From: a virus
Lineage: Duplodnaviria; Caudoviricetes
Length of the DNA stretch: 64,000 bases
Reading direction: 5' to 3' (one strand)
Virus record (IMG/VR): IMGVR_UViG_3300010051_000550
Span: 15,667 to 79,666 of that record
Position 1 is the first letter of the stretch. Each line of letters starts with the position of its first letter. A program made the translations under genes and the position numbers. The notes beneath the pieces were generated by a model, which saw only the letters and a program-made list of their open reading frames with translations, was not told where the DNA came from and ran no database searches. Below, piece after piece: positions 9,591-60,714 of the stretch.

Positions 9591-9605
9591 GGAGACAAGA
9601 CCACC

Positions 9606-9830
9606 ATGACGATTTACGAGGAAGTCAACGAGCAGCTGGAGAACAAGAATATCGATTCGTCGCAGATATCGGCCATCGGCTTCACGCCCGCTATCGGCCG
9701 GTACGCGCAGATGGACGACGGCACGCGGATCGCGCTGAGCGACCACGACTACTGGCTGCTGGACGACAACCTGGAAGCGATGAATCAGGCGTGGCTGGCG
9801 CAGCAAGCAGAAGAAACCATTCCCGCCTGA
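9606..9830 (+). CDS. Hypothetical protein, first gene of the accessory operon
   Basis: GGAGACAAGACCACC-ATG. Confidence 0.75.
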   Translation: MTIYEEVNEQLENKNIDSSQISAIGFTPAIGRYAQMDDGTRIALSDHDYWLLDDNLEAMNQAWLAQQAEETIPA

Positions 9831-9857
9831 AGAGCGGGGCCAAAAGGAGACAAGACC

Positions 9858-10190
9858 ATGTTGACTGTAGATTCCTTGACCGCAGTGTACGCCGCCATGA
9901 AGGCGGCGACCGCCGAGGCCTTTAACGCGGCCGAAGCGGCCGAGATCGCAAGCGCCGCCTACGAGGCGGGCAAGAGCGCCCTTCTGCTGGACGGCAAGTT
10001 GGACGGCAAGAACGAGGCTCAGCGCGAGGCGCAGGCCCGCGAGGCGCTGGCTCCTCTGTTCGAGACCGTCCAGGCGACCGGGCGGGCGGCGCGCCTGAAG
10101 AAGCACCTTCAGGAGATGGCGCGGATGGATGTGGAACTGGTTCGCGCACAGCTCCGGTTTCTGGAGCTGGCTGAGGTGAACGAGGCCTAG
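9858..10190 (+). CDS. Helical/coiled-coil phage protein
   Basis: GGAGACAAGACC-ATG; GKNEAQREA motif. Confidence 0.75.
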   Translation: MLTVDSLTAVYAAMKAATAEAFNAAEAAEIASAAYEAGKSALLLDGKLDGKNEAQREAQAREALAPLFETVQATGRAARLKKHLQEMARMDVELVRAQLRFLELAEVNEA

Positions 10191-10235
10191 CACGACAGGC
10201 CGGGGAGGTGACTAACCCGGCCGAGGAGATACGAG

Positions 10236-10625
10236 ATGGCTGTCAATAGAATGGCCGAGGTGTGCGAGTTTTTGGTGTACCTCAGCGACGAGACGCTGGC
10301 GCGAGTTGAGGCGGCCGCCTCTCAGGAGATAGAGCGGCCGGGCGCGACAGCGGAAGAAATAGAGAACGGGCGTGTGGTCGTAGATGCGGTACGCCGCGTC
10401 TATGACGGCCGCGAGCCGGCCAGGCATGTGGAGCACGCCCCCCACGTCGGGGAGACGGGCATCGAATGCCCGTTCTGCGACCGGGAGCTCGACTGGAACG
10501 GTCACTTGCACGTTTTCTGCTGCGACTGCTGCGACTACAAGTGGAAGGATGCGGCCGAGATCGAGCGCGACCGGAAGCTGGTCGCGATGGCGTACAGCCA
10601 GATGACCGGTGGCCTGGACGGGTAA
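10236..10625 (+). CDS. Hypothetical protein with a Zn-ribbon
   Basis: CPFC...CCDCC. Confidence 0.7.
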   Translation: MAVNRMAEVCEFLVYLSDETLARVEAAASQEIERPGATAEEIENGRVVVDAVRRVYDGREPARHVEHAPHVGETGIECPFCDRELDWNGHLHVFCCDCCDYKWKDAAEIERDRKLVAMAYSQMTGGLDG

Positions 10626-10638
10626 AGAGGAAAAAATC

Positions 10639-11145
10639 ATGAAGGAATTTCCGGTTGATGCGGGGATTATTGGAATCGTGCCGGTGGCGGCCATCCAGCG
10701 CGAGGACAGCTGGAAGGAAGGCGGGCTGGTGATTCGGGTGCAGGGCGGGCGGTTTCTGAACCTGCACTACGACTATGGAACGATCACCATCACGGCCGAC
10801 CTGAACGGGGCGGTGCCGGTGCTGGAAGACACCGATTTCTGGGTAGGGGATTTGTGCTACGTGCTGGAGAACAATATCCCGGCCGACGATCCCCAGTGGC
10901 ACGAGTCGACTAATCCGGCTCCCGGCTACTGGGCGGCATGCGTCAGTTCATTCGAGACGCCGCGACATGGCGGGTGCTATTTTGCCCGGCCGTTCCGTTT
11001 GGAAGGGGGAATGGCGGGGCTGGTTTCGAGCACACAGTGGGGAGACGGGTTGTACCCGGGCGCGGTTCAGCACGAGGGCAAGTACACGGTTCGCGTGCGG
11101 ATTGAAACCGGTGAGGTAGATGATTTTGAGGATGAGGAGGAGTGA
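10639..11145 (+). CDS. Hypothetical protein
   Basis: GAGG RBS before ATG at 10639. Confidence 0.7.
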   Translation: MKEFPVDAGIIGIVPVAAIQREDSWKEGGLVIRVQGGRFLNLHYDYGTITITADLNGAVPVLEDTDFWVGDLCYVLENNIPADDPQWHESTNPAPGYWAACVSSFETPRHGGCYFARPFRLEGGMAGLVSSTQWGDGLYPGAVQHEGKYTVRVRIETGEVDDFEDEEE

Positions 11146-11957
11146 TGGGCGGCTTGATACGAAGACTAGTAGTAGATAGCGATGAACTGGTGGATGGGCT
11201 AGACAAGGCCGTTGCGCCGGTGGCCGACGAGATCGACCTGACATTACTGGATGAGAAACGCAGTTTGACCGGCATGGTGCTTAGGTGCGTATGGGAGGTG
11301 CGGGTGAAGTCGGTCGACATGCGTCCGTTTCGGTTGATCTACGACGACAGCAGAGCGGCGGAGGACGGTGAATGGTTCCTCGAAAGCGATGACGAGAGCG
11401 TCACTCTGACGTGGTGGGCAGAGTACGGCGACTGGCAAAGTCAGCCAATTCGGGAATTTTTGCGCCGACAGTTATGGCCGTCGAAATCGGCCGTCGTGCT
11501 GATCGTCTGGAACGGCGATTACGAACTGTTCGAGAATGCGTTGGTGCAGTTTAAAGACCCGGCCGTTATCCGGGAAATGTACAACCTCACGAAAGCGCTC
11601 AGGCCGGTAGGCCAGGGGAAAGTGGCGGGGCTGAGCGTCTATAGCACCTGTGCCAAGTTGACAGCCGATTCCGTCACCGCTTATCAAACCCACGCGACCC
11701 ACGATACTACGCCGGGGCGCTCGCTTGGTGATGAGGTTCTCCTTGAGCCGCTAGTCGCCGCTCCCTTGTTCGGAGAAGAGATCGATGACCTGATGTTGGA
11801 AGTGAGCGACGACGGCATGCTTCTGATCCGAAGTGACAGGCTCAACGGATGGGGATCGATTGATCTGGGTGACCTTGTCTTGGCGCTTGATACAGAGTCA
11901 GCATGCGGATTGGGATCGGCGATGAGGACGAGGAGGAATGATGGGTCTGTTAGCTGA
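11145..11957 (+). CDS. Hypothetical protein, paralog 1
   Basis: Shares APVADE..LT, C.W.VR and LE...DGMLL..SD...GW...DL with 11938-12771. Confidence 0.75.
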   Translation: MGGLIRRLVVDSDELVDGLDKAVAPVADEIDLTLLDEKRSLTGMVLRCVWEVRVKSVDMRPFRLIYDDSRAAEDGEWFLESDDESVTLTWWAEYGDWQSQPIREFLRRQLWPSKSAVVLIVWNGDYELFENALVQFKDPAVIREMYNLTKALRPVGQGKVAGLSVYSTCAKLTADSVTAYQTHATHDTTPGRSLGDEVLLEPLVAAPLFGEEIDDLMLEVSDDGMLLIRSDRLNGWGSIDLGDLVLALDTESACGLGSAMRTRRNDGSVS

Positions 11958-12771
11958 TTTGATGCGGGAGGAGTCGGCCGACGACTTGGCGCTGGCGGGT
12001 GAAGAGAGCTTGCGCCGGGACTGGAGAGAGATTACTTCAGAACTGGCCAGAGTGATCGCGCCGGTGGCGGACGAGGTGGAGCTGACCGAGGTCTTTCGGG
12101 AGCGCACCGACACAGCCGTTCTCAAATGCACGTGGCTCGTTCGGCCCAAGCCCGAAGCAGCCCTGGATGGGGCGTTTCATTTGGTGTTCGATGTTGCCAG
12201 GGGATGGTACCTGGTAGACGCGAACTCGAAGAGAGTCTTCCTCGTTAACGGTGGCTCTCTGGACAGAGAGCCGCATTGGGAGGCGGCTGAGGTTCGCGCG
12301 TTCCTGAAGAGGGTGCTGGTTCCGAAGGAGAAGGGGCTGGTATGGGTGGTGGCCGATTGGTCAGGAGATACTGACTATGAGGAAGTTCTGGTCAGCTTCG
12401 ACGGGAAGGCGCTCGTCGGCGAGATGTGCCGGGTGGTGCGCGCCGGTCTTCATCCGCTTCTTCAGCCACCGATGTTCGGGGATGATGACTGGTTGCGCGT
12501 GACGGGGTCGTCAATCGAGATGCGAGGCAAGGCGATACAGGTGTATCGGTTCCGGCCGGGGCGCACAGCGAGAGATGGAAGCTTGCCGGGAGCTGGGATG
12601 CTGCTCGATGCGGCCGACGCTATGGCGTTGTGCGGCGCGCCGATTGGGACGCTCATTTTGGAACTGGGCAACGACGGGATGTTGCTAGTGCATAGCGACG
12701 AGTATGAGAGGGAGGGGTGGGCAACGGTCGATTTGCTGGCGGTGGAGGAGATGCTGGATGAAGCACAGTAA
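11938..12771 (+). CDS. Hypothetical protein, paralog 2
   Basis: Shares the same motifs with 11145-11957. Confidence 0.75.
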   Translation: MMGLLADLMREESADDLALAGEESLRRDWREITSELARVIAPVADEVELTEVFRERTDTAVLKCTWLVRPKPEAALDGAFHLVFDVARGWYLVDANSKRVFLVNGGSLDREPHWEAAEVRAFLKRVLVPKEKGLVWVVADWSGDTDYEEVLVSFDGKALVGEMCRVVRAGLHPLLQPPMFGDDDWLRVTGSSIEMRGKAIQVYRFRPGRTARDGSLPGAGMLLDAADAMALCGAPIGTLILELGNDGMLLVHSDEYEREGWATVDLLAVEEMLDEAQ

Positions 12772-13051
12772 AACCGGCCGCGAACTTGATTACGAGGAAT
12801 TCGCCAAGCTGCACGCTTTCCAGTATCGGCTCTCGGAGCTTCTGGTGACCTGCGAAGTGGTGTCTGTCGCTATGAGCGATGACTTCGTGTTCTGCGTCTG
12901 GGGAGTTCTCCGGCATGGGCCAGAGAAAAAGCCGGCGCTTCTGGCGTCGGTGCCGGGAGACTTGGACAAGGCCATTGAGTTGGCCATGTTCGCCGCACAG
13001 GAGTTGGAGCGGCCGTATCTTGAAACGGTGGAATTGGAGACAACATCATGA
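12758..13051 (+). CDS. Hypothetical protein
   Basis: Overlapping starts/stops within the operon. Confidence 0.6.
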   Translation: MKHSKTGRELDYEEFAKLHAFQYRLSELLVTCEVVSVAMSDDFVFCVWGVLRHGPEKKPALLASVPGDLDKAIELAMFAAQELERPYLETVELETTS

Positions 13052-14193
13052 GACTGGAAGAACTGTTGGAAATGGGGCTGGATGAGGAAAAGGCTGAGGA
13101 AGCGAGGAAGGCCGAGCGCGATGCGGCATTCCGCTCTCGACTGGCCAAGCACGACGCGGCGTTTCGGTCTTGGCTGGGCGAGCTGGCCGAGGACTTCGAG
13201 ATCGATAGGCCGGAGGAGTTGGACGGATATATCGGTGGTGAGCAGCCGATACGCTGGACAATCCGCCCGAAGTGGCGGTTGCCCTATCCCTTCACCGCCA
13301 TGACGGCGGGTAGCGGCGCATACCGGTTTGGGCTGAACGGCACAGCCTACGCGGTCAGCACGGCCAACGATCCGGACTTCGCCCGCTTCCTGCTGAATGC
13401 CAAGAAAGCGCATGACGCGGAACTCGAAGAGCGGATCGCGGGACTGGCGAGGGAACTGGCGGTCGTCAAGGTGTTCACCCGCGCCGATAGCGAGGAGGCC
13501 CGGCTACGGAACACGCACGCGAAGCTTATGCAACTGGCTCCGGCGCGGTGGGAAGAGTGGGCCGCCTTGTTGAATAAGTCGCTGGCCGAGTTGAAGGGGC
13601 AAGTCGCACAGCAGGAAGAAGAGGAGGCCTTCCGCGCGTCGGCGATAGAGGCATATCGCCTCGCGATGGAGGCGTGGGCCGATGAGTGCGAGGCCGTCGC
13701 CGCCCACAACGCCGAGGTGATCAACCGGCTGAAGAACGCCCTGGGCGAGGTGAAGCAGGAGCTCATGATGGTCGAGTACGCCGTCGTTGCCGACGACGAG
13801 TACGGCCCCCAGGTCGAGATACGCACGGCATGGAGCGCCGGCGAGATTGCCGACGCGCCTGACGCGCATCTGCTCATTGAAGGCGGCCGAGTTCGGAAGT
13901 GGACGATCCGCAACATCATCCGCATGTCCGAGTTGGAAGAGGTGACGCCGGATAGACATCCCAACCTGTTCGACGAGATGCAGATCGCCGGAGAGAGGGT
14001 CTTCTTCCTGCCCTGCTCGGCCGAGCACCGGACGTTGGTCAACGAGGCATTGAGCGCCGTCCGTGTCGCCCCGGATGCGCCAAGCTGGGATGAGTCCAGC
14101 GGCGGGCTGGGGTACGGTGATGACGTACGCGACGCCGCGCGGCCGGCGCGGGATCGGGCTAACCAGGTCGTCACGGAGTGGTGGCCGTTCTGA
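13048..14193 (+). CDS. Hypothetical coiled-coil protein, 381 aa
   Basis: ATGA coupling; long ORF. Confidence 0.75.
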   Translation: MRLEELLEMGLDEEKAEEARKAERDAAFRSRLAKHDAAFRSWLGELAEDFEIDRPEELDGYIGGEQPIRWTIRPKWRLPYPFTAMTAGSGAYRFGLNGTAYAVSTANDPDFARFLLNAKKAHDAELEERIAGLARELAVVKVFTRADSEEARLRNTHAKLMQLAPARWEEWAALLNKSLAELKGQVAQQEEEEAFRASAIEAYRLAMEAWADECEAVAAHNAEVINRLKNALGEVKQELMMVEYAVVADDEYGPQVEIRTAWSAGEIADAPDAHLLIEGGRVRKWTIRNIIRMSELEEVTPDRHPNLFDEMQIAGERVFFLPCSAEHRTLVNEALSAVRVAPDAPSWDESSGGLGYGDDVRDAARPARDRANQVVTEWWPF

Positions 14194-14211
14194 GTTGTGT
14201 GGAGGTAAGGG

Positions 14212-14460
14212 ATGGCAACTGATACCAAAGAATCACAGGCGGTTCGCGCATGGTGCATTGAACTGAAGGCGGCGCTGTTGCGTTTGGAAGCGGCCGTCTA
14301 CATGGTTGAAATCGGCCGCGACGCGCCGGAGACGGTGCAGGTGGAGTTGGCGCGGGTGCGCGAGGTGTGGGATCGATGCCCGCTTCCGTTGCACGAGATG
14401 GGCGCGATGAAGGTGCACGTGCTCGCCAACGGGACGTGGGAGACGCACGATGTCTCATAA
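14212..14460 (+). CDS. Hypothetical protein
   Basis: GGAGG RBS. Confidence 0.65.
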   Translation: MATDTKESQAVRAWCIELKAALLRLEAAVYMVEIGRDAPETVQVELARVREVWDRCPLPLHEMGAMKVHVLANGTWETHDVS

Positions 14461-14490
14461 CCCGATGGGCGGCGGTTTTGGGAGGCGAGT

Positions 14491-14880
14491 ATGACGAGGA
14501 AGCAAGGCAGCGACGGGTATCTGCCGACGGCGCGGTATGTGGGACCGAGCGACGAACTGCGCTTCGGCGAGGCGGAGTATCAGGGCGGGCGGATTTATCC
14601 GGTTTCGCCGGAGGCTCACGCGAAGTTGCGCGCGTTCTGCCTGGCCCAGCGGGAAGCGGCTGCGGCGCGGCGTAAGGCGGCGCGGCGTCGGGTTGAGTTG
14701 TCGTCGGAGCAGTTGGAGGAGGTGATTCGCCGGCACGAGGGGGGTGAGTCGCTGACAAATTTGGCGGCCGAGTTCGGGGTTAGCGCGATTACGCTGATCC
14801 TGCGGCTGCGTGAGTTGGGTCATGATACGTCGCGCCGGCCGGGAAAGGGCCGGCGCAAGAGGCAGAGGCTGGAGAAGTGA
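14491..14880 (+). CDS. HTH DNA-binding protein
   Basis: LSSEQLEEVIRRHEGGESLTNLAAEFGVSAITLILRLRELG. Confidence 0.75.
   Translation: MTRKQGSDGYLPTARYVGPSDELRFGEAEYQGGRIYPVSPEAHAKLRAFCLAQREAAAARRKAARRRVELSSEQLEEVIRRHEGGESLTNLAAEFGVSAITLILRLRELGHDTSRRPGKGRRKRQRLEK
14853..14880 (+). repeat. 28-bp direct repeat, second copy at 15861-15888
   Basis: GCGCAAGAGGCAGAGGCTGGAG(A/G)AGTGA, one mismatch. Confidence 0.85.
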
Positions 14881-14914
14881 ACGGAATGAAGTTCAAGTTT
14901 ATTGAAGGCGCGCA

Positions 14915-15211
14915 ATGACATTCGCCATCAGACTGTCCGACCTAGCCATCCTGCCTGAGTTTCATCCACTCGGGTTTCTGCTTGGCCCGGTATTAACCGA
15001 TAGGATCGTTAACCTTGGCGGCCAGTTCGATGCGGCGGGAGTAGTCCTGGAATGCGACGACGCCGAACGGCTGGATGCAATTCTGCGCGTCGCTACGTCG
15101 CAGAACCTACCCGGATTATCGTGGCCGATACGGACGTATAAGAGCACTACCGGCGCGGGCGCCTGGCGGCGGTGGAATCCGACTGAGGAGACCCCGGCTA
15201 CCGTAGACTAG
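14915..15211 (+). CDS. Hypothetical protein
   Basis: ORF inside the repeat-flanked cassette. Confidence 0.55.
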   Translation: MTFAIRLSDLAILPEFHPLGFLLGPVLTDRIVNLGGQFDAAGVVLECDDAERLDAILRVATSQNLPGLSWPIRTYKSTTGAGAWRRWNPTEETPATVD

Positions 15212-15261
15212 CCCCCTGCCCTCTGACACCGTGTTTTTGAAATAGTTCAAAGGAGAATGAA

Positions 15262-15609
15262 ATGATCAACATTGACGATTTAACAATAGGACAGGCCCGC
15301 GAGTTAGCGGCCATGTTCGCCGGCGCACACGCCGCGCCGCCAACCGTTATTGACCACGGCCTGCAAATCGCAGTGCTGGATAGAGGTTTCGTCTACATCG
15401 GATACGTGACCACCGATGGCGAGTGGTGTCGCATCGAGAACGCCTGGAACATCCGACGCTGGGGCACTAAGAAGGGCCTCGGTGAACTGGTGAACGGGCC
15501 ACTGTCCGACACGGTTTTAGATCGCGTCGGCCGGATTCGACTGCCAATGAGCGCGCTATTACACCTCATCGAGGCAAAGGGGACGGCGTGGACGAGCAAA
15601 TTAAACTGA
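15262..15609 (+). CDS. Conserved phage protein, DUF6948-like
   Basis: IAVLDRGFVYIG...ENAWNIRRWGT..GLGEL..GP pattern; followed by a Gly-rich gene, a pairing common in phages. Confidence 0.6.
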   Translation: MINIDDLTIGQARELAAMFAGAHAAPPTVIDHGLQIAVLDRGFVYIGYVTTDGEWCRIENAWNIRRWGTKKGLGELVNGPLSDTVLDRVGRIRLPMSALLHLIEAKGTAWTSKLN

Positions 15610-15824
15610 CCGGCGTCTACCGCTTCGGCGGCCTCTTCGGCGACGGCGGTGGCTACGGCTACGGCAACGGCAACGGCACCGGCTTCGGCGCCGGCAGCGA
15701 CGGCTACGGCGACGGCTACGGTGATGGCTATGGCTACGACGGCGACGGCAACGGCACCGGCTTCGGCGACGGCAGCGACGGCTTCGGCGACGGCTGCGGC
15801 GACGGCGGCTACGGCCATGCCTAA
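15588..15824 (+). CDS. Gly/Asp/Tyr-rich low-complexity protein
   Basis: GDGYGDGYG repeats. Confidence 0.65.
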   Translation: MDEQIKLTGVYRFGGLFGDGGGYGYGNGNGTGFGAGSDGYGDGYGDGYGYDGDGNGTGFGDGSDGFGDGCGDGGYGHA

Positions 15825-15889
15825 AAGTAACGGCCGCGTTCCAAGCGCAGCCGGGCGGCTGCGCAAGAGGCAGAGGCTGGAGGAGTGAA

Positions 15890-16636
15890 ATGAGTGATCT
15901 ATTGACATTGACAGACGCGGCTTTCGATAACCTGGTCATCAACATGACGAGCAAGGAGCGGGCTTCTGCTTTACGGCAGATGGTGCGCCAAGTGCGCGAA
16001 CTTCAGGAGGCATTGGGGCAGGTCGATCTTGGCGAGTGGGAAGATGACCGGCTTCGGGAGTGGCTGCCGGCGGCGGCGGAAAGCGAGATGGTCAAGCGGT
16101 TGACCGCCCGGAGCGAGGGGCTGAACTGGGAGCTTGGAATGGCTACTCGACGTATGGCCGAACTGGAAGCTGAGAATGTCCGGCTTCGGGAGCGTTTGGC
16201 GGCGGCCGAAGAGCGCGGAAGCGAATTTGAGGAAGGTCTGGCGTATGTGGAAACAAACTCCGATAGCCTCGCTCCACCAGTGGGGTATAAGCCGGACCCG
16301 ATCCAGTTTCAATGTTTGAGGACGTGGTACTCGGCGGGGGAGGTGTCAATCCATCACTCCGAACAGGTTCTGCACGCGGTGCTGGGTCTAACGGGGGAGG
16401 CGGGGGAAGTTGCCGACCTGGTGAAAAAGTGGGCGTTCAAGCCAGGGGCGTCGGTCGGCCGCGAGGACGTGCTCGATGAGCTGGCGGACGTGCTGTATTA
16501 CACGGCGGTGCTGGCGCATCTGTGGGAGTTCGATAATGAGGACATGCTCGACCATCTGGCGAAGAAGCTGGCGGATGGGCATGGATGGAAGGGGTTGCCG
16601 CCGATTGTGGCGATGAGGTGCGGTGAAGGCCGGTAG
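15890..16636 (+). CDS. Coiled coil fused to a MazG-like NTP pyrophosphohydrolase
   Basis: LGLTGEAGEVADLVKK...DELADVLYY (ExxE...ExxD motif). Confidence 0.85.
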   Translation: MSDLLTLTDAAFDNLVINMTSKERASALRQMVRQVRELQEALGQVDLGEWEDDRLREWLPAAAESEMVKRLTARSEGLNWELGMATRRMAELEAENVRLRERLAAAEERGSEFEEGLAYVETNSDSLAPPVGYKPDPIQFQCLRTWYSAGEVSIHHSEQVLHAVLGLTGEAGEVADLVKKWAFKPGASVGREDVLDELADVLYYTAVLAHLWEFDNEDMLDHLAKKLADGHGWKGLPPIVAMRCGEGR

Positions 16637-16748
16637 CGGGAGAGCAGAGACATGAGCTAGATGCTGAACGGAACGTGCGTGACGACCTGGCGAAGCACGG
16701 GGTGGCTATCAAGGGCAATCTGAGCATTGAGATCGAACTGTAACGAGG

Positions 16749-17282
16749 GTGGAGATGGCCGAGTTGGTATTTGATAATTGCAGGGTGCTGGCGCTGGCAG
16801 TGGTGACGAATGGAATTCACGATGCTGTGACCGGGGTGGAAGAGGCGAGGGAGTGGATCGGCTCAGAGGTGTTTGAGTTATGGTGCGACCGGTGTGATTT
16901 GCATCCTGAGTACCTGCGCCGGCGGGTGGCGCGGCTTCTGGCTTCGGGGCGGTCTGTTCTGCTGCCGGACGATGGGGATGACGAGGCGGTGGATATTGAC
17001 GAGGCGGTGCGGCTGCATGAAGAAGAGGGGTATACCTGGTCGGAGGCCGCCGCGAAGATGAACGTGTCTGTTTCGACCTTGCGGAATAGACGCAAGGCGG
17101 CCGGGCATAACATGGCTAAGAGCACCGGCGCAGGGGCGACCGGTAAGGAGATCATCAAGATCGATTTGGAAGCGGCCAGGCGGCTGCATGAGCGGGGACT
17201 TACCTGGAGGGAGATCGCCGACCAGCTCGGGGTGAGTGCCGAGACGCTGCGACTGCGGCGGAAGGCGTTTGGAGGATTGTGA
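16749..17282 (+). CDS. Protein with two C-terminal HTH motifs, candidate transcription regulator
   Basis: GYTWSEAAAKMNVSVSTLRNRR and GLTWREIADQLGVSAETLRLRR. Confidence 0.8.
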   Translation: MEMAELVFDNCRVLALAVVTNGIHDAVTGVEEAREWIGSEVFELWCDRCDLHPEYLRRRVARLLASGRSVLLPDDGDDEAVDIDEAVRLHEEEGYTWSEAAAKMNVSVSTLRNRRKAAGHNMAKSTGAGATGKEIIKIDLEAARRLHERGLTWREIADQLGVSAETLRLRRKAFGGL

Positions 17283-17656
17283 TGGCTCTTTGCAGATGGT
17301 CTGATTACCGATGTGACTTGTATATCTATGAGAGCGACTGGGGCATCGAGTGCCATGTGGCCTGGCGGCGGCGCGTGGGCGAACCGGAGCCGCCGCTTAT
17401 CCCCGTGGATGGGGACGATGAGGCGTGGCTGGCGTGGCAAAAGGCATTTGTGGTTTATGAAGAGCAACTGCTGGCGGCGCCGCTGGAGCGGATCGGCCTG
17501 CCCCACGACGGAGAGAGCCGCACCTTCGGCGAGTGGGGCGAGTTGCTGGCGTATGTGACGGGGTTGAAGGAGTTGGGGTATGGGGTGCCGGATTGGGTGA
17601 TTGAGGAGATCAAGGAGGAGGTTGCCGCGTCCGGTTTGTTGGAAAGCGAGGAGTGA
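17279..17656 (+). CDS. Hypothetical protein
   Basis: Coupled start; last gene of the accessory operon. Confidence 0.7.
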   Translation: MMALCRWSDYRCDLYIYESDWGIECHVAWRRRVGEPEPPLIPVDGDDEAWLAWQKAFVVYEEQLLAAPLERIGLPHDGESRTFGEWGELLAYVTGLKELGYGVPDWVIEEIKEEVAASGLLESEE

Positions 17657-17708
17657 ACATGTGTTCACGCGGGGCGTATTGACGCGCGGCCGGGGCGCGT
17701 GATAACCT
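17653..17708 (+). promoter_or_regulatory. Palindromic box GTGAACATGTGTTCAC plus head-operon promoter
   Basis: GAAC-N4-GTTC ends 12 nt before TTGACG; extended -10 TGnTAACCT. Confidence 0.75.
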
Positions 17709-17782
17709 ATCAGCACAGCGATAAATCATATATTCTGAGCGCGGCGCAACGGCCGCGAACAGCGACGTAAAACGTGTGAATG

Positions 17783-17813
17783 ACGCCGCTCCCAATTCGG
17801 GAGCGGCGTTTTT
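17783..17813 (+). terminator. Leader terminator upstream of the head operon
   Basis: ACGCCGCTCCC...GGGAGCGGCGT followed by a T run, ~15 nt before the ATG. Confidence 0.75.
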
Positions 17814-17828
17814 GTTTTCGGAGGTGGT

Positions 17829-19253
17829 ATGGCAGTTCTGACGAAGACCGGCCTGAGCGCCAATCGAGCTGAGCAAGAACCGGATGTTTCCTACATCACG
17901 CGACGGGCGCGGCTGCGGCCGGCGTCGTTTAGTGAGGTTCGGGAAGCGGGCTTGCTGGACGGGCGGGCGAACGGGGAAGGGGAGCAAGATGACACTCGGT
18001 ACTGGTTCACGGCCGAGATTTCGAGCGAGGCGCTGGATTCGTATTTCACGCACATGTCGAGCGGCACTCTGCGCAACTTCGCGCGGAACGCGGCCGAGGG
18101 TGTGTCGCTGCTGGACAGCCACGACGGTCACAAGCTAGGCGTGGGGTACTCGGCCGGCGGGCGATATGAAGAGGAGAACGGCCAGGGACGCGCGTTGGGC
18201 ATCTTCTACATTGTGCGCGGCATCCGGTTCGGCGGCAAGCATTCTTATGCCAGCACCGACGACCTGATCACCGCCATCGAGAACGGGGTTGTGCGCGACG
18301 TGTCGGTCGGGTTCTACGGCGGCCGGTGGGTTTGCGACTTGTGCCATCAGCCTTATTTCGGCTACGGCTCGGCCTGCAATCACTGGGCGGGGATCGAGTA
18401 TGAGATTGAGCGCGACGGCAAGATGGTGCGCGAGGTGTGCACGGTCCAGATCGACGATGCGCACCTGTCGGAGGTGTCGCTGGTGTTCGATGGGGCGACG
18501 CCGGGGGCGATGATTCTGAAGGCGGAGCAGGCGGCGGAAGACGGCCGTCTGACGCCGGACATGACACGCCAACTGGAGATGCAGTACCGGATCAAGTTGC
18601 CGGGACCGGTTGCCGATGGCCGGACATTGAACGTTCGGGGCGGCTTTGTGAGCACCACCGGCAACGCGGCCGACATCAGGATCGTCGCAGGCGCGGCGGT
18701 CAATGGAGCGAGAGTGATGGAAGAGGAAGAAGTTATCGAGACTGTGGAAGAGGTAGTTGAAGAGCCGGCCGCCGACGCGGCCGTCGACCAGGCAGGGGCG
18801 GATGAGGCTCGCGCGGAACTGGACGCGGCCCGCCAGGCGCTGACCGAGATTCGGGATGTGGTGGTCGACTCCGGCGCGCCGGAGGGCACCACGCTGGCCG
18901 TGTCGGTGCGCTGGCTGAATGAGCAGCTGGCGAAGGTCACTGAGGAGCGCGACCGTGCGCTGGGGCAGGTGGCCGAGTTGCAGCCGCTGGCCGACCAGGG
19001 GCGTGAGTATCGCTCGCGCCTGGTGGAGGAGGCGGTAGCTGAGGGCGTGCGCGCCATGAGCGCGTCGTTCCCGGAGGAGACGTATCGGGCGATGCTGGAA
19101 AACGCGCCGCTGGAGCACATTCGCAAGGTGAAGGAGACGTTCGCGGCGCAGGCGGCCGAACGGTTCCCAGGCGGGCGGCAGACGCGCGATGAAACGAGTA
19201 ACGGCAAGAAGCCGAAGCCGGAAGTGCCGGCGGCGGCCTACGGGGTGAAGTAA
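17829..19253 (+). CDS. Prohead protease fused to a scaffold
   Basis: LLDSHD...VRDVSVGF...LSEVSLVFDGA protease-like motifs; acidic coiled-coil C-terminus. Confidence 0.8.
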   Translation: MAVLTKTGLSANRAEQEPDVSYITRRARLRPASFSEVREAGLLDGRANGEGEQDDTRYWFTAEISSEALDSYFTHMSSGTLRNFARNAAEGVSLLDSHDGHKLGVGYSAGGRYEEENGQGRALGIFYIVRGIRFGGKHSYASTDDLITAIENGVVRDVSVGFYGGRWVCDLCHQPYFGYGSACNHWAGIEYEIERDGKMVREVCTVQIDDAHLSEVSLVFDGATPGAMILKAEQAAEDGRLTPDMTRQLEMQYRIKLPGPVADGRTLNVRGGFVSTTGNAADIRIVAGAAVNGARVMEEEEVIETVEEVVEEPAADAAVDQAGADEARAELDAARQALTEIRDVVVDSGAPEGTTLAVSVRWLNEQLAKVTEERDRALGQVAELQPLADQGREYRSRLVEEAVAEGVRAMSASFPEETYRAMLENAPLEHIRKVKETFAAQAAERFPGGRQTRDETSNGKKPKPEVPAAAYGVK

Positions 19254-19297
19254 CCCTGAATTCTCAGTAGATGAACAGCAGGACGGAGGACTAGGAC

Positions 19298-19723
19298 ATG
19301 AGCGAGCGGACGAATGTCAGCAACATCGGCGTGGGCGGGGTCTATCGCACGTACAAGATCGACGACTCGACGATCACTTACGATGCGACGAAGCCCGGCG
19401 GCTCGGAGCAGGTGGGGCTGGCGGTAACTTTATCGGCAGCGGATACGGTGGCGCTGACGGCCGACGCGGACGAGGTGATCGGGAAGCTGATCCTCGTCGA
19501 GTCGGACGACAAGTGCACGGTGATGACCGACGGCACGATGGCGCTGCCGGGCGGAGATGGGGCGGCCTTGACGCTGGGCACGAAGATCGTGGGCGACCTG
19601 GGGGCGGGCAACGCCAAGGGGTACATCCGGTCGGCGGCTTCGGGGCAGGCGGCCGAGTTGCTGGTGGCGCGCGGGCGAATTGAGAATGCCGGCACGGCTT
19701 CGGCCGTGGTGGTGACGCTGTAG
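19298..19723 (+). CDS. Head decoration/cement protein
   Basis: Small beta-rich protein between scaffold and major capsid. Confidence 0.65.
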   Translation: MSERTNVSNIGVGGVYRTYKIDDSTITYDATKPGGSEQVGLAVTLSAADTVALTADADEVIGKLILVESDDKCTVMTDGTMALPGGDGAALTLGTKIVGDLGAGNAKGYIRSAASGQAAELLVARGRIENAGTASAVVVTL

Positions 19724-29527: not shown

Positions 29528-29543
29528 ATGTTGGCGCGCAAAC
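29528..29543. promoter_or_regulatory. Near-palindrome ATGTTGGCGCGCAAAC, copy 2 of 3
   Basis: Reverse complement is identical to 9484-9499. Confidence 0.7.
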
Positions 29544-53685: not shown

Positions 53686-54816
53686 TTATCCGCTTTCGCA
53701 ACCGATACCATCTCCATCCGAGTCAAACCGGTGGGGGTCGTCGCCCACCACCTGGAACCGGCGATGCGTGATGTCCCCACAATCCAGATCGGGCGGCGGC
53801 GGCGGAATGCAGACCGTTGGATAGGACGGGTGGCAATTTCCCGACGGCGGGGGCGGGGCGATGGGCACCGGATCGGGAGCGCGAACCGGCTCTGTCGGCA
53901 GCGGCGCGGCTACGAGAGCGCAGCCCCGGCCGGTACCCTCATTCATTAGCCCGTGCAGCGTCGCCGACATCGCCGTGTCGGGTGGGTAGTCTTTCGCTAC
54001 AGCCCAGCCGCCGGCCACCAGCGCGCCGTTGACGAATGTATTTCCAACGTAGACATAGCGCAGCAAGCGGCCGAAACGATCCGTCTCGCTGACATCCCGC
54101 ACCATCCGCACGGTCTGGCCGGCGACGAGCGCGGCGTTGGCCTGCGTCGCCTCTGAGCCGCAAGTCTGCCCTACCTCGGGCGTGTCCATGCCGATGTAGC
54201 GCACGCGGTACGAAGCGCCGCCCATGCTCACATCGATGGTGTCGCCGTCGATGACGGCCGTCACGACCGCCGACTCTCCTAGCGCTGCCGGCGCGCTCGT
54301 TGCCGTTGGCAGTACAGGTGGCTGTGTCGGTGGGACGCTGGGCGCAGTGGGCAGGGGGCGGGTGGGCGTGGAGGGAGCGAGCGTCGCCGTTGGGGGAATA
54401 CGCGTAGCTGTTGGCGCTGAGGTGTTCGTCGGCCTCTCCGTCGCTGTCGGCCGTGCGGTGTTGGTCGGCCGTGGTGTGTTCGTAGCGCGTCGGGTGGCAG
54501 TCGGCGGCTGGTCGGTTGGTTTGGCCTGCGCTGCAGCCGGTTCGTCGGTTAGCTCAGCCAGCTCCTCAGCTGGCTCGTCCTGGGCTACCGATTCGACCTG
54601 GGCAAATTCAGCGGTTGCCGCCAGGCCGGCAACTTCGGCCGTCGACTCTGCGGTAGGTAAGCTGGCGAAAGCGGAGCACATCGTCAGGCCACAGCACGCG
54701 AATAGGAGGGGAGCTGCCAGCCATATTACCTTGCCAAACGTGCCCTGTCCGCGAAACTGGCCCATCCACCAGTTACTGAAGCGCGAAAAGTGTACTATCA
54801 CAAGGCCTCCTGTCAA
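53686..54816 (-). CDS. Membrane-anchored thermonuclease (SNase) with a C-terminal Cys/Asp Ca-binding-like module
   Basis: VIDGDTI...VRYIGMDTPE...DRFGRLLRYVY...LVAGGWA; [19 protein letters not shown]...[15 protein letters not shown]. Confidence 0.9.
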   Translation of the reverse strand: MTGGLVIVHFSRFSNWWMGQFRGQGTFGKVIWLAAPLLFACCGLTMCSAFASLPTAESTAEVAGLAATAEFAQVESVAQDEPAEELAELTDEPAAAQAKPTDQPPTATRRATNTPRPTNTARPTATERPTNTSAPTATRIPPTATLAPSTPTRPLPTAPSVPPTQPPVLPTATSAPAALGESAVVTAVIDGDTIDVSMGGASYRVRYIGMDTPEVGQTCGSEATQANAALVAGQTVRMVRDVSETDRFGRLLRYVYVGNTFVNGALVAGGWAVAKDYPPDTAMSATLHGLMNEGTGRGCALVAAPLPTEPVRAPDPVPIAPPPPSGNCHPSYPTVCIPPPPPDLDCGDITHRRFQVVGDDPHRFDSDGDGIGCESG

Positions 54817-54927
54817 TCCTGCGGGGAGAAATCACTGAAATTGTGTCGGTTGCGCCTTTCGATTTGTATTAAGCTAGCATTTTGACCTTCACCTTAGTTT
54901 GTGCCTTCTCAATTGCAGAGAAGTTGA

Positions 54928-55902
54928 CTACTTATATTTCCCTAGGAGAATGTCTAACATGCTATACCCTAACCCTTGTAAGCGCCTTAATTCTGCATAT
55001 GCTTCCTCGGGACTATCGAACTTTCTGACCCATTCTATGGCCACATTTTCCGCGGGATTTAATGGTAAATCTAAGCTTTGGCGAGTTCCTGTCAACTCCG
55101 ATTTCTTCAAAGGTTCGGTGATTGAAAAATAGTTATTTGATACTTGCACAAAAATATTCTGACATAAGGTAACAACGTCATTATAAATAATGGTTAAATT
55201 CGAGTAATTGATCGGTATAGGACTCCCGATAATGAAACCTTGCATTTGATGCTCGGTTATTTCTGATTGGTTCAGTTTGCTCAAGTATTTATTGTTAATA
55301 AGTCCGCCGTTGTGGATAATGGCATTTCTCATGTATAAAGCGACGACTAGATTCCTTCTATCGCCGGAAATATCTATCCCCATTTTTGACAATCGATAGA
55401 AACAAGAGTCGTATGACTTTCTAAATATTTCATACAATATGTATTCTGTAAGATCTGCGAACTCCTCTGGCCCCAATTGCCCGAGCGTCTTCTGATTTTG
55501 CTCTAGCCATTTCAAGGCTGAACTGTCACCCTCGAGCATTGACGAGTCACTCTCCCAGATCGCGGTTAAAGTTCTTCCTAGAAATGCTTCGAAGTGGGCA
55601 AGTATCAGCGGTAGTTCTTGGTAACAAAGATAACGTTCCTTGTCATCGCGGAATATGATTCCAGATAGCGTTTCGTACAATTTGTGATCTGTTTTGTGCA
55701 GAGGATCTGCCTTAGATAAAGAGCTCCTTGCTAAATTTGCAAAGAACGGGATGTCATCCTCCTTACCGGTTTGTTGTTGCTTTAATTGCGTATCAGGGAT
55801 GCTTTTATAGGCATAATAAGTCATAATTTCCGCACGATACATTGAGCTTAGAAAGTTAGCGTAGTGACGCCTATAATTGTTCCAGTCCATCCAGATCTCC
55901 AT
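54928..55902 (-). CDS. Low-GC HEPN-like protein, putative RNase
   Basis: RNAIIHNGG (R-x4-H); I.LAHFEAFL pattern upstream. Confidence 0.62.
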   Translation of the reverse strand: MEIWMDWNNYRRHYANFLSSMYRAEIMTYYAYKSIPDTQLKQQQTGKEDDIPFFANLARSSLSKADPLHKTDHKLYETLSGIIFRDDKERYLCYQELPLILAHFEAFLGRTLTAIWESDSSMLEGDSSALKWLEQNQKTLGQLGPEEFADLTEYILYEIFRKSYDSCFYRLSKMGIDISGDRRNLVVALYMRNAIIHNGGLINNKYLSKLNQSEITEHQMQGFIIGSPIPINYSNLTIIYNDVVTLCQNIFVQVSNNYFSITEPLKKSELTGTRQSLDLPLNPAENVAIEWVRKFDSPEEAYAELRRLQGLGYSMLDILLGKYK

Positions 55903-56135
55903 TTTTACTCTTAAGATATTTCCAAGTCTTGCTCACCTTCCCCACTTGCCACTCACCTTTCTGCGTCTGCTTTGTGGAAGCTTGCTTACCTTCACAGGTA
56001 CCATCGACAAGCATGAAACAGCACCTTCTTGCTCAAAGACCACAAGCATCTGAATTGATCTCAAACATTGTAGCTTCCTCCTATAGCGTCTGCTTTACAT
56101 AGCTGGAACATTTTCTCCATCGTTATCAGTAAAGT

Positions 56136-59100
56136 TCATCCTCCAATCCACAGGCCGTCGCCGGCGGTGCGGGCTTGGCCGAGGGCAGTTAGGGTTTGGA
56201 GCAGGTCGGTTACTTGGATTCGGCGAGCTTTTGTGGCTGGGCCGTCGAATGATGCGGCTATTTCGTCGGCTGTGACGGGGCGGGCGAAGGCGGCGAGGGC
56301 GGCACGCACGGCTGTGGCGCGGGCGGCGAGTTCGTTAGGCCAGGCGGGTTTGGCGGCGGGCGCGGATATGGCCTCCTCTTCCAGCAGCGTGGACTGGACG
56401 GCGGGGGCCGGCGCGTGGTCGGGGGCCTGGTATTCGGGGCGGAGCCAGCGCACGAGGCCGCGCGCTTCTTCGGCCGCGCGTTGGGCGTTGAGGGCGACGA
56501 GGCGCTCCAGTATCTGGTCGTCGCTCAAATCGGTTGGCCAGCCATAGGCTTCGAGGACGGACGCGTCGAGTTCGTCGTGGAGCTGGCGCAGGACGGAGAC
56601 GAGGCCTTGCTCGTGGATGCGACGGTCGGCGTCGGTTAGCGGCTCGCCGGCGCGCAGCTTGGCCAGGACGTTGTACATGTCGGTCAACGTGAGACGCGGG
56701 TGCTGGGCTTGCTGGCGCTTGCGGTGGGCGTCGAGTTGCTCGCCTAACTCGCGGATGCGGCCGCGTTTGGTGTAGGTAGGTTCGGGGAAGGGGAAGGTCT
56801 CAAAGCAGCGGGTTTTGACATACACCGAATCATTGCCCACGCCAAGCCAGGAACCAGCAGCAAGCGACCACGCTACGTGAACCCGACATGACAAGACGCC
56901 AAGATAGTAGGCATCGTCCAGTGCGATATTGACTAATTTATTGTCCGGCAATATAGCGGCATCGAGGAATGTGAAGAATCTATGCCGTGACGTCTCGACG
57001 GTAGCGATGTAGCGTGGCAGGCCGGCGAGGGCAGGGCGGAAGTTTCCGCGCGGTTCACCGTGAATCCACCAGTTGGTGCGATAGGAAGCGCGGTTGTTCT
57101 GGTCTCGCTCAGGTTTTACTCGTTCATAGACCCACTGGTAGACCTCGGGGAAGCGGAGACGCACCTCGTCAATTCCTAGCCCATATAGGTCGATGACCAT
57201 AACGCCGCGTGTCCTTCCCGTTAGATCGCGGCCGTGCCGGTAATTACGAATATGGGATTCCAGACCCGGAGTGCGTCCATACCCCAATGAACGCGCCTCA
57301 TCCGGAGTGACTATAAATCCTGACCCGATCAACTGGACACCGCGACTGCTCAAGTTCCCATTCGCCAGTAGAGGTGTCGCGCCTGAAACATCTGCCCCAA
57401 TCGTCAGATCGCTTTGTATCTTTCCTGTGCGCTCTTCCAGTGTCACCTCGACTTCGCCCGATTCCAAAGGCCGCTCGGCCGTCACTGCCTTCAGCACGCC
57501 ATCGGCTACTCCAACCGCGCCAACGGTCATCGAGATGCGCACGGCCGCGCCGTCGGATGAATCGACCCACGGGTGATCGGGGATGGCGAACAGCAGAGAG
57601 AGCGGGGGCGTGGCATCCATGTGGGCCTGCAGCACGCGGCGGTTGAACGTCTGGCGCAGGCTGTTGGTGGTGATGAGGCCGAAGCGGCGGATGGCTCCGG
57701 CGCGGGCCAGGCCGGCCGCCTTGTGCCACCAGTACATGACGTAGTCGGCCGAGGCGGGCACGACCGGATAGGTGGCGCGGATGGCCTTGGTATAGCCGTC
57801 GCCCAGCGCGTCGCGCATCCGCGCCGTGCCGATGAACGGCGGGTTGCCGATCACGAACTCGGCCGCGGGCCACTCGGCCGGGCGCGGCTTGATGTAGCGG
57901 TAGACAGGGACGCGGCTGGTCTCGTCGGGCACTTGCTCGCCGGTGACGGGATGGGGGCGGGTGGTGCGGCCATCCCAGCGCGAGACGGGGCGGCCGTCGG
58001 CGTCGAGTAGCGGCTCCACCGCATCCCAGTCGAGGACGGCGTCGCGGCGCTCGATGTTGTGGAAGTCACGGATGATAGGTTCGGCCGGCAGCACGTCGCC
58101 GCGCGTGCGCAGGTGCCATTGCAGGTAGCCGATCCACAGCACCAGCTCGGCGATGGCGGCCGCGCGGGGGTTGATCTCGATGCCCAGAAGCTGCTGCGGC
58201 GTGACCATGACGCTCTCGATTTCGAGCGACAGTTGGCCGTGGCCCAGGTCGCGCAAGGTGTTGAGCACCTCGCCTTCCAGCCGCTTCAGGTGCTCAAGCG
58301 TGACGTAGAGGAAATTGCCGGTGCCGCAGGCGGGGTCGAGCACGCGCGTGGCGGCCAGACGGCGGTGGAACGCGGCGACTTCGGCGATGGCCTTAGCTTC
58401 CGCGCCGGACTCGGCGAGCTGGGCAGCGGCGGCCTGCACGCCGTCCCACTCGGCGCGCAGCGGCTCGATGATGGTGGGGATGACCAGCCGCTCGACGTAG
58501 GCTCGTGGGGTGTAGTGCGCTCCCAGCTTGTGGCGCTCGACCGGGTCCAAAGCACGCTCCAGCAGGGCGCCGAAGATGGCCGGTTCCACGTCGCGCCAGT
58601 CGGCGCGGGCGGCCTCGATGAGCAGTTGAATCTGCACCTCGTCGAGCGGCAAGGCATCCTGCTCGGCGAAGAGGCCGCCGTTGAAGCGGGGGATGGCTCG
58701 CCGCAGGATGACGGAGAAGCCGCCGGCGTTCATGGTTCCCCACAGGTGTTCCAGCATCGGCTTGAAGCTGGCCGGGTCGTGGCGCAGGTCTTTCAGCAGT
58801 TCGGTGAAGGCTTTCTCCGGCAGCAGGCGCACGTCTTCGGCGAACATGGTGAAGAGGCAGCGCATCAGGAAGCTGGCGACCTTCTCCGGCTCGTAGGACT
58901 TCTCCAATGACACGGCCAGCGCGGCCAGGCGGCCGGCGATCTCGCGGGTCACGCGAGCGGTGCGGCGGGCGGGGTCGAGGCTGAGCGGATCGTCCCAGAC
59001 GGCGCGGAGCAGCTCACGAGTGGTCTCGTCGCGCAGGGCTTCGAGGGGGAAGCGGTAGCTGTGCGGATCGGGGAAGGGGGTGTAGTTGCCGCCGCTGCGG

Positions 59101-59582
59101 GTGAACTCGCTGTGGAGTTCGATGGTGTTGCCGACGTCGACCACGATAAGGAAGGGGGGACGGCCGCCGTCTTGTAGTTCGGCCGGCGGCAAGCTGCGGG
59201 CGTAGGTCTGGGCTTGGCGGCGGGCTTTTTCGAGGGCGGTGTCCCACGTGGAAGTGCCACGGGCGGCCGTGCCGCGCTTGCGCTTTTTGGGCGTGGCGGC
59301 GAGGGGCGCAGGTTCGGGTGTATCGCTGCCCTGCTTGGCTTCAAGAACAAATCGGCCGCGCCGGTAGAGGTCGATGAAGCCGGTTGTGCCGTGTGGGAGG
59401 GGGACGGCTTTCTCGAAGACGTAGGCGTTGTCGGCCGCGTCGGGGGTGGAAGGGTCTGGCTTGTCAACCCCGAGCAGCTCGCACAGTTCGACAAGGAAGA
59501 GCTGGTAGTTGGCGCGTTCGGCCGCGCCGGATGCGCGCCAGCGAGTGATGAAGTCGTTGATTGGTTTCGATGTGCCCGTCAT
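56136..59582 (-). CDS. MmeI-like type IIL fused restriction-modification enzyme (N6-adenine methyltransferase)
   Basis: [12 protein letters not shown]; IDLY...VLEAKQG; LGAHYTP; [11 protein letters not shown]; IGNPPF; TRD-like C-terminus. Confidence 0.92.
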
Positions 59583-60187
59583 TTCTCGCAGCCGACTCCA
59601 TCCTTATCACTATCAAACCTATGGGGATCTGGTGGGAGCACGGTAAAGTTATGCCATTGAATGTCGTCGCAGTTAAGGTCCGGGGGCGGGGGTGGAATGC
59701 AATGATCCGGGTAAGAAGGATGGCACAGCTTAGGGTCTCTGGTTGGCGTGGCGGTGGGCCTTGGCGTCTTCGTGGGTGTTGCTGTCGGTGTCCTGGTGGG
59801 CGTTGCGGTTGCTGTGCTGGTCGGCGTCAGCGTCGCGGTGCTGGTGGGCGTTGAAGAGGGCGTGACCGTTTGGGTTGGCGTGTTGGAGGCAGTCGGTGTA
59901 GCCGTCGGCGTGGCGGTTAATGTGGCCGTTGCTGCGCTGGTTTCTGTGGCCGTTGGCGCGGCCGTGGTGGCTGTCATCGTGGCCGTGGCCTCCAGTGTTG
60001 ATACGGGCGTTGAGCCGGGTAGGGTGGGGGTTCCCGGCGGGAGTGGGGCGGTTCTGGCGTCGAGCACAGCCGGCAGGTAGACGGAGGCCTCTTCCTGGTC
60101 GACGGCTACCAGCAGACGGCTGCCGCCAAGGGAGAACAGCAGAAAGCTGATGAGCATGAATATCCATCTGTGCGATGGCTTTCGCAT
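59579..60187 (-). CDS. Secreted Thr/Pro-rich protein with the same C-terminal Cys/Asp module as 53686-54816
   Basis: Signal peptide; YLPAVL; [19 protein letters not shown]...[15 protein letters not shown]; ATGA overlap with the R-M gene. Confidence 0.8.
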
Positions 60188-60482
60188 TGCGGGCGCCTCC
60201 TTTCCGCAGGCCGTCGCCGGCGACGCGATAGCTTTGAATCGCGCGCCCTAGCCTGACCGTATTAAGTTGTCGGGGAATCTGGTCTCCTATGAGGGAGTAT
60301 ACACGGGGATTCAGCCGCGAGGCAATAAAACCCTGGAGTGCTCGGGGTAGTGGGAGTCAGGGCTATTTTCCCATGAGCTTAGTTAAATTAAACTGTATTA
60401 TTCCAACCGGCATGATAAGAGAGAATAGTGGCGCGAAAGCGGTTTGGTCTTGAGGATTCGCCAAAGCGAGGTGCTTTCGGGA

Positions 60483-60511
60483 TTGACGCGAGATCGGCCG
60501 CATGTTATGAT
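60483..60511 (+). promoter_or_regulatory. Near-consensus sigma70 promoter
   Basis: TTGACG-17-TATGAT with an extended -10 TG. Confidence 0.85.
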
Positions 60512-60516
60512 GTAGT

Positions 60517-60597
60517 TGGTCTTGTCTCTGAAACTCAGAGATGAAAGAAAGCCCGGATCGCCAGGTTCACTACTGGCGGTCTGGGCCTTCTGTTTTT
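60517..60597 (+). ncRNA. Putative ~80-nt sRNA or leader RNA
   Basis: Starts at the predicted TSS with TGGTCTTGTCTC; hairpin CTCTGA-AAC-TCAGAG; 14-bp terminator stem at 60551-60586 plus T run. Confidence 0.5.
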
Positions 60598-60714
60598 AGG
60601 AGATATGCGGGATTGGCAGGGACGGGACCTAGGCCGCGAGACAAGACCACCAGCAGCCAAAAAGACACAACAATTTAACGCCACAGTGGTCTTGTCGCCG
60701 GAACGCGAGGCGAT

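Follow-up and report, generated by a model that had tools for sequence, protein, structure and literature searches.

Why should a 12-nt motif that lies between the Shine-Dalgarno (SD) sequence and the start codon of two small phage genes reappear, as its exact reverse complement, at the very point where another promoter of the same phage is predicted to start transcription? The question is posed by a 64,000-nt stretch of a Caudoviricetes provirus (hereafter the window), which corresponds to bases 15667-79666 of the 79,666-bp IMG/VR record IMGVR_UViG_3300010051_000550; sites outside the window on the same record are given with the prefix C1. A preliminary, sequence-only reading of the window had explained the motif by a trans-acting small RNA (sRNA) complementary to the ribosome-binding sites (RBS) of the genes starting at 9606 and 9858. 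Our analysis supports this idea in part, namely as regards the conserved unit, the seed that begins at +1, the wobble-preserving changes in the targets and the fixed position of the motif against the ATG in orthologues, and it widens the set of targets. With a probability of roughly 0.55, we propose that a trans-acting sRNA with a 5'-terminal seed prevents four to seven phage genes from initiating translation, and that it autoregulates its own operon, the products of which are a membrane protein, an FtsK-like protein and ParA.

Motif copies and the predicted RNA gene

On the + strand of the window the 12-mer is found at 9592-9603 and 9847-9858, and its exact reverse complement at 60517-60528; all the coordinates previously given for it proved correct. 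A recurrence at 60638 and an inverted copy near 60686, also reported in the sequence-only reading, were found as well: the former (60638-60649 on the + strand) belongs to a 15-nt identity with 9592-9606, and the latter (60687-60698) has one mismatch. Matches with at most one mismatch number five in the window, against 0.17 expected, and six in the whole record (79.7 kb), against none for a reversed control; altogether the record holds five exact and about four degenerate copies. The 12-mer is among the few repeated 11-mers of the record that are not simply GC-rich. A genome-wide scan, as had been proposed, adds three copies outside the window, all before ATGs: an exact one at C1:12957, two nucleotides before the ATG of a 106-aa gene (C1:12971) that opens a ParB-methylase operon, a 9-mer core at C1:10355 that abuts the ATG of a DUF5131 gene (C1:10363), and a copy with a one-base insertion at C1:4920 that abuts the ATG of a ParB-like gene (C1:4936). 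These had been missed, and so had a wobble copy of the motif (60619-60631) and the parA start region (62971-62991), both described below.

All sense copies either form the SD-to-ATG spacer or lie within the operon leader at 60.6 kb. Those in start regions are anchored to the ATG, being 0 or 2 nt off it or inside codons 2-7, and the identity among the copies is limited to an 11-15-mer with unrelated flanks. These features bear on the simplest explanation, i.e. that duplicated RBS cassettes left the copies behind as relics, or that the repeats are due to chance, and that they have no regulatory role. Phage genomes do recycle start regions, but none of 100 shuffled windows reached the observed count, the identity ends with the 11-15-mer, and in the relatives described below motif and anti-motif are each kept at 48-72% protein identity while the neighbouring non-coding DNA diverges, which makes this explanation hardly credible.

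A motif-like site at 6392, found also in the related locus L152, was rejected as a target, being coding and outside the initiation window. Another repeat, the 13-mer TTTGCGCGCCAAC, occurs four times (9485-9497 on the + strand, 29530-29542 and 52930-52942 on the - strand, and C1:4903 on the + strand), always in a gap that follows a gene or terminator and precedes a promoter or RBS; at C1:4903 it directly precedes the motif of the ParB-like gene.

The reverse complement of the motif belongs to a predicted transcription unit on the + strand. Its promoter (60483-60511, TTGACG-17-TATGAT) has a TG-extended -10 element, a GATC in the spacer and 10 of 12 consensus matches. The complement begins at the predicted transcription start, as had been claimed, except that the exact canonical +1 is G60518, while T60517 is probably position -1. 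The predicted RNA of ~80 nt (60518-60597) starts with the 11-nt seed A1, GGUCUUGUCUC (60518-60528), which is complementary to the RBS motif, and comprises further stem-loop 1 (60522-60544), an intrinsic terminator with a 14-pair stem (60551-60586) and a U tract; the near-consensus promoter, hairpin, terminator and ~80-nt RNA of the sequence-only reading are thus present as predicted features. The fold of an 82-nt RNA has an energy of -44.4 kcal/mol (z = -7.3) and consists of a free 5' end, stem-loop 1 and the terminator. In all predicted folds the first 4-6 nt of the seed are unpaired, and the remainder forms the 5' arm of stem-loop 1. Sites with at least 10 of 11 Watson-Crick pairs to the seed, sought on both strands of ~230 kb of phage and relatives, all fall at start regions or in the operon leader. 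No Rfam family reached the gathering score in the window, and at E-values up to 5 there were three chance matches on 60400-60760, none of them c4. Open reading frames (ORFs) that span the unit are not conserved in relatives. The prediction thus places a promoter of its own and an intrinsic terminator around a short non-coding RNA, the arrangement of an sRNA gene. The octamer UGGUCUUG (60517-60524) also belongs to a stretch that is conserved in the 16S rRNA of bacteria (~980, E. coli numbering).

Relatives of the RNA gene and the leader of its operon

Homologues of the FtsK-like protein, together with one architecture pattern scan, revealed five further RNA units (L127, L138, L145, L134 and L137), which with the window unit make up the six homologues compared here; protein identity is 72% for L127, 48% for L145 and 52% for L134. 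An 11-nt block, GGTCTTGTCTC, is invariant in all six and starts in each of them exactly 7 nt past the -10 hexamer, which is the canonical start distance of sigma-70 promoters, while the six intervening bases differ in every sequence. Such a pattern, in which conservation sets in at +1, indicates a conserved transcription unit. The -35 element and part of the promoter spacer are likewise kept in 6/6. All six RNAs fold alike into a free 5' end, a stem-loop and a terminator (z = -3.1 to -7.8); stem-loop 1 is always closed by GUCUC/GAGA(C/U), with a variable apical part, and the consensus fold has 22 pairs, of which five in the terminator show double compensatory changes. We are confident that the unit at 60483-60597 is a real conserved small transcription unit, and infer that its RNA is made.

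Outside the module of RNA gene and operon the relatives are mosaic. A related-locus search with the FtsK-like protein found nothing in viral, genome or metagenome contig collections, a 14-mer scan of viral contigs gave single chance matches only, architecture patterns had no match in viral contigs and five chance matches in genome contigs, a start-region pattern scan of viral contigs gave no clear relative, and the DNA of window positions 9000-13000 had no match in the phages collection. Near-identical and related DNA is present in sludge, wastewater, drinking-water and soil metagenomes (nine studies). In contigs of four metagenome runs the region 60300-60900 shows about 46 substituted and 16 indel places, and none of the variants falls inside A1, the M2 12-mer or A3 (the latter two are leader elements described below); as the expectation for these 36 nt is ~3-4 variants, this gives modest support. 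The natural variant C60561T keeps its terminator pair as G.U, and in one natural variant stem-loop 1 and the terminator are replaced wholesale with the flanking elements kept.

Two side observations concern the RNA promoter. The GATC in its spacer (window 60491-60496) is common to all five relatives, and the phage encodes a Dam methylase (C1:7278-7898), so the promoter might be methylation-sensitive. A partial copy of the anti-motif stands 30-150 nt upstream of the promoter (60445-60453 in the window, 1082-1093 in L127) and is deleted or altered in one natural variant.

The leader of the downstream operon, past the terminator, contains three elements on the + strand related to the seed. The wobble target copy M1' (60619-60631) pairs with A1 at 11/11 seed positions, eight of them Watson-Crick; pairing of this extent is found at only 12 positions of the 64,000 on the + strand of the window. 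M2 (60638-60652), an exact target motif, can pair either with A3 in cis or with A1, and A3 (60686-60698), a second anti-motif, folds with M2 into a hairpin that closely precedes the SD of gene 60715. The predicted fold of the full-length leader pairs A1 with M1' and M2 with A3, so that the alternative leader pairings suspected earlier are recovered in predicted folds and accompanied by covariation in relatives. The DNA of M1' differs in the relatives (only 7-9/11 identities), yet 9-11 of the 11 pairs are kept, mostly via A-to-G changes. M2 shows in relatives an A-to-G change at position 4, which makes a G.U with A1. The inner pair of the M2:A3 helix is A-U in the window, G.U in L127, L138, L145 and L137, and G-C in L134, and at the helix end C-G is replaced by U-A in a compensatory change. 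With a single exception, the substitutions in the 8-nt core of M1', of M2 and of the copies at gene starts replace A by G where the partner is U, or C by U where it is G. Wobble-preserving changes of this sort, together with the covariation of M2 and A3, are signatures of RNA helices and not of a DNA site for a protein. The seed probably pairs with the leader motifs.

The same data can be set against the alternative offered in the sequence-only reading, that the 11-12-mer is an asymmetric DNA operator of a phage repressor. The model here is provided by the stoperators of mycobacteriophage L5, short asymmetric repeats in short intergenic gaps that are present in some two dozen copies, have one orientation relative to transcription and are bound by the repressor. 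Copies in short intergenic gaps would then stop transcription, and the copy at +1 and the inverted pair of M2 and A3 would control the promoter at 60483. The copies at gene starts are all sense and in short intergenic gaps, while A1 and A3 have the inverse orientation inside their + strand transcription unit; one copy overlaps +1 of the promoter, two more, 37 bp apart, make an inverted repeat, the relatives conserve the copies, and conserved copies in both orientations suit a DNA site as well as RNA pairing. However, the exact and degenerate copies in the record are far fewer than the stoperators. They are fixed to the ATG and not to promoters; M1' retains its pairing with little DNA identity; the wobble-only variation, the covariation at the edge of the M2:A3 helix and its G.U intermediate speak for RNA; the invariant block begins exactly at +1 of an RNA gene that starts with the complement; and no conserved DNA-binding or repressor gene is linked to the unit in relatives. 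The comparative evidence therefore favours a trans-acting sRNA, and we keep the operator, the main rival, as an improbable explanation.

The operon begins with the gene of a 139-aa membrane protein (60715-61134, + strand; SD GAGG at 60706-60709), which is syntenic in all relatives, followed by that of an FtsK/SpoIIIE-like protein of 564 aa (61094-62788, + strand) with 50 homologues, some of them with PF01580 on record; a Pfam search of the window copy gave nothing firm. Just past the RNA terminator, the leader bears a conserved box with invariant columns, GGAGAUAUG(G/C)GGGA (60599-60612, + strand). In full-leader folds of the five relatives this box, GGAGAUAUGGGGGA, is complementary to the C-rich loop or apex of stem-loop 1; in the window stem-loop 1 is short and without the C run, and the box has C for one G. 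Box and loop may constitute a second seed-target pair. We rejected the box as an ORF start, which is not conserved in relatives, and also a 37-codon ORF (60605-60718) as a leader peptide: its SD-to-ATG distance is only 2 nt, and its frame and length vary (8 codons in L134, open-ended in L127).

Three loci with 54-59% identity in the FtsK-like protein (L128, L131 and L146) are without the RNA unit. In its place, ahead of the membrane-protein/FtsK-like operon, they have a ribbon-helix-helix (RHH, Arc/Mnt-like) gene with its own promoter (L128, 7975-8193; L131, 3611-3817; L146, 8270-8476). The position of a repressor gene where other relatives have the RNA gene suggests that this slot holds the regulator of the operon, a protein in some lineages and an RNA in others. 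A P22-type antirepressor gene (P22_AR_N) is present downstream in L128, L131 and L144, the upstream region of the last being cut off by the contig end; such genes occur only in RHH-type relatives.

Other features were noted around the partition genes. Two sets of repeats occupy window positions 62800-62826 and 62904-62945: tandem palindromic AGCGCTACGT units follow the FtsK-like gene, and two copies of AAGTTGTCACAA(G/C)CG(G/C)TTAT stand just ahead of parA; these units and repeats are candidates for centromere or ParA operator sites. An 83%-identical relative (L126) encodes Cas6 and Csf3 of a type IV CRISPR-Cas system at 5282-7242, a few kb past the ParA module.

Distant start regions and the proposed circuit

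The two start regions from which the question arose are those of a 74-aa gene (9606; motif at 9592-9603, in its SD-to-ATG region) and a 110-aa gene (9858; motif at 9847-9857, abutting the ATG), both on the + strand; that they are early accessory genes is conjectural. The ATGs directly after the motif are the starts used by the orthologues, which for the 110-aa protein have 50-71% identity. In L148, L151 and L152 the 74-aa and 110-aa genes both keep the motif against the ATG, and the surrounding intergenic DNA is unrelated. The motif is exact in three of the six orthologue starts; the others have G for A at position 2 or 4, A for G at position 3, or a one-base insertion of the type seen at C1:4920. 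For gene 9858 it is exact in L148 and L152 and has the one-nucleotide insertion in L151; L152 carries an extra tandem copy. The conserved seed is thus complementary to several start regions that are themselves conserved in relatives.

We predicted duplexes of the first 24 nt of the RNA with 87 start regions, using 550 coding segments as controls. Energies of -20 kcal/mol or lower were reached by 7/87 start regions and by 2.2% of the controls. The top four were parA (-28.0 kcal/mol), 9606 (-24.7, with ~16 pairs), 9858 (-23.8) and C1:12971 (-21.8); both genes named in the sequence-only reading thus rank high, and the predicted target set becomes wider than these two, with the 106-aa, DUF5131, ParB-like and parA genes. 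Pairing is weaker for DUF5131 (C1:10363) and the ParB-like gene (C1:4936). In parA, the product of which is ParA-like by PHROG 164, the start region (62971-62991, + strand, with the ATG at 62971) pairs with nt 1-20 of the RNA through 19 pairs with one bulge per strand, and the pairing takes in the loop of the short stem-loop 1 of the window. The parA gene of L134 begins with ATG-G followed by the exact 11-mer, and in that of L145 the shared bases are read in another frame.

A side observation concerns the DNA ahead of these genes. The promoter of 9606 (TTGACT-17-TATAAT) is followed by an AT-rich TTAATTATTAA-like leader (9547-9591 in all, + strand), likewise in L148, L151 and L152. Such units fill the space between the -10 element and the RBS motif in the operons of 9606 and C1:12971 and are kept in relatives (runs at 9576-9591, C1:12926-12950, L148 2025-2054, L151 9700-9740 and L152 9710-9736); similar AATATTATT boxes are located just upstream of the -35 element of the RNA promoter in L127, L138, L145 and L134. 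Units of both types are a candidate protein operator common to these promoters.

Taken together, the leader and the start regions suggest the following mechanism. The RNA, with GGUCUUGUCUC as its 5' end, would base-pair with GAGACAAGACC, which in several mRNAs of the phage occupies the SD-to-ATG interval or follows closely on the ATG: those of 9606, 9858 and C1:12971, more weakly those of the DUF5131 and ParB-like genes, and more extensively that of parA. Pairing that covers the SD and the start codon should block 30S binding and lower translation; as the duplex covers the SD and, in parA, the AUG itself, we infer that the RNA acts in trans by repression rather than activation. The seed would also meet M1' and M2 in its own downstream leader, where A3 would compete for M2, so that read-through transcripts would be autoregulated in the manner of P1 c4.

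A narrower explanation confines the pairing to the leader, as a cis-acting attenuator of the membrane-protein/FtsK-like/parA operon with the short RNA as a by-product, and gives the distant motif another cause, either a spacer that enhances translation or recognition by an RNA-binding translational repressor, which would bind M2 as well. A1, M1', M2 and A3 do form a closed, conserved set of alternative helices in one transcript, the unit is in every case followed by the same operon, the motif takes in the SD and directly adjoins the ATG throughout, as expected of a translation signal, and relatives, which were sampled over 12-22 kb, show few distant targets. But M1', M2 and A3 are downstream of the terminator and so cannot decide termination, and M2 has no start codon after it, yet is identical over 15 nt to the start region of 9606. 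Moreover, whatever its purpose, a terminated RNA whose complementary 5' end is free would anneal to such sites, and no candidate RNA-binding protein is evident. We regard the cis-only leader as unlikely.

Several points weigh against the proposed trans-acting sRNA. The seed is identical in all six homologues and hence shows no co-variation with its putative targets, the strongest kind of test. Stem-loop 1 ties up 7/11 of the seed bases, and in relatives the terminators have interrupted U tracts. Only in this record are the RNA gene and distant targets found on one contig; L134 has the RNA gene and one exact target (parA), and its DUF5131 gene has lost the motif. Relatives without the RNA gene carry part of the parA motif via conserved Lys-Thr/Ile codons, so that the conservation in parA is only moderate evidence. 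Because G.U pairing is promiscuous on the G-rich coding strand, ranking by energy alone is noisy, and energy-only target scanning was dropped for its many G.U-rich false matches. The conserved motif copies in both orientations could be explained by a DNA-binding protein too, and none of the sequencing runs found to contain the stretch is an RNA run. The prediction is unusually easy to test, since the seed and its targets are short and exact.

The genome setting invites a broader, still doubtful interpretation. The left arm of the record, outside the window, encodes an integrase, a RepO-like protein, a Tat sulfatase and the ParB-like, Dam, DUF5131 and ParB-methylase proteins; the window contains packaging, head and tail genes and an MmeI-type restriction-modification gene, and ends on the right with the membrane-protein, FtsK-like and ParA genes. 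The RNA could conceivably be the hub of an RNA-only immunity and maintenance circuit, in which one 11-nt seed would silence a regulon sharing an RBS cassette, would set the level of ParA and the FtsK-like protein, and would be interchangeable with an RHH repressor gene. The regulon would extend over at least four operons, including replication/partition, the methylase operon and an island inside the head module. Since seed and cassette are conserved among mosaic relatives, the RNA of a lysogen would in that case also silence incoming relatives, i.e. confer cross-immunity.

What is known of regulatory RNAs in phages comes mainly from a few enterobacterial models, and most of these RNAs act on a single operon or on host genes. 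Here an uncultivated temperate phage family of sludge, wastewater and soil appears to target its own cassette-sharing start codons and its partition operon with one sRNA. If true, dispersed phage operons would be co-regulated post-transcriptionally via a common RBS sequence, an sRNA gene and an RHH repressor gene would be interchangeable at one regulatory slot, and the compact pair of 11-nt seed and cassette would be usable as an orthogonal translational switch.

Comparison with known systems

By analogy, the phage RNA would work most like c4 of P1 and P7, a short RNA that is encoded at the start of an operon, is complementary both to sites further along the transcript and to an RBS, and acts by translational repression and autoregulation (PMC12197685). 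As in c4, the RNA is encoded upstream of complementary sites in the same transcription unit (from A1 at 60518 to M1', M2 and gene 60715, in all six homologues), and both P1/P7 and this phage carry plasmid-type partition genes. We nevertheless do not consider it a member of the c4 family, for three reasons: a match to the family in Rfam sequence or structure is absent; the operon encodes the membrane protein, the FtsK-like protein and ParA instead of icd and the antirepressor ant; and the 5' end is a predicted primary transcription start and the 3' end an intrinsic terminator, unlike the processing sites of c4, the mature form of which is released by processing (RNase P) from a longer precursor. 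Unlike c4, the RNA also has extra putative targets up to 63 kb away in other operons.

Small stable leader RNAs with complementary repeats in the same leader are also the immunity factors of the satellite phage P4 (CI RNA) and of the phage-plasmid N15 (CA RNA). These RNAs are processed and act via premature transcription termination in their own operon. The present RNA resembles them as a small leader RNA with complementary repeats in its own leader, and differs in that its complementary sites coincide in part with start regions, some of which belong to distant genes.

In P22, the small sar RNA makes the RBS of one of the phage genes inaccessible (PMC12197685). The proposed block of the RBS is similar, and the RHH-type modules L128, L131 and L144 bear Arc/Mnt-like RHH and P22_AR_N genes at the locus. 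The sar RNA is encoded on the opposite strand and is fully complementary to its target, whereas the RNA described here is encoded elsewhere and has a seed of only 11-20 nt; its putative targets are on the same strand as the RNA, 0.1 to 63 kb away. As it is not cis-antisense, it is not sar-like.

Trans-acting, multi-target base-pairing sRNAs encoded by phages are exemplified by VpdS of the vibriophage VP882 and PreS of lambda (PMC12197685). They act largely on host transcripts or host sRNAs, whereas the regulon predicted here consists of the phage's own start regions, which share one cassette. Among phage trans-acting sRNAs, such a shared-cassette set of the phage's own start regions would be new.

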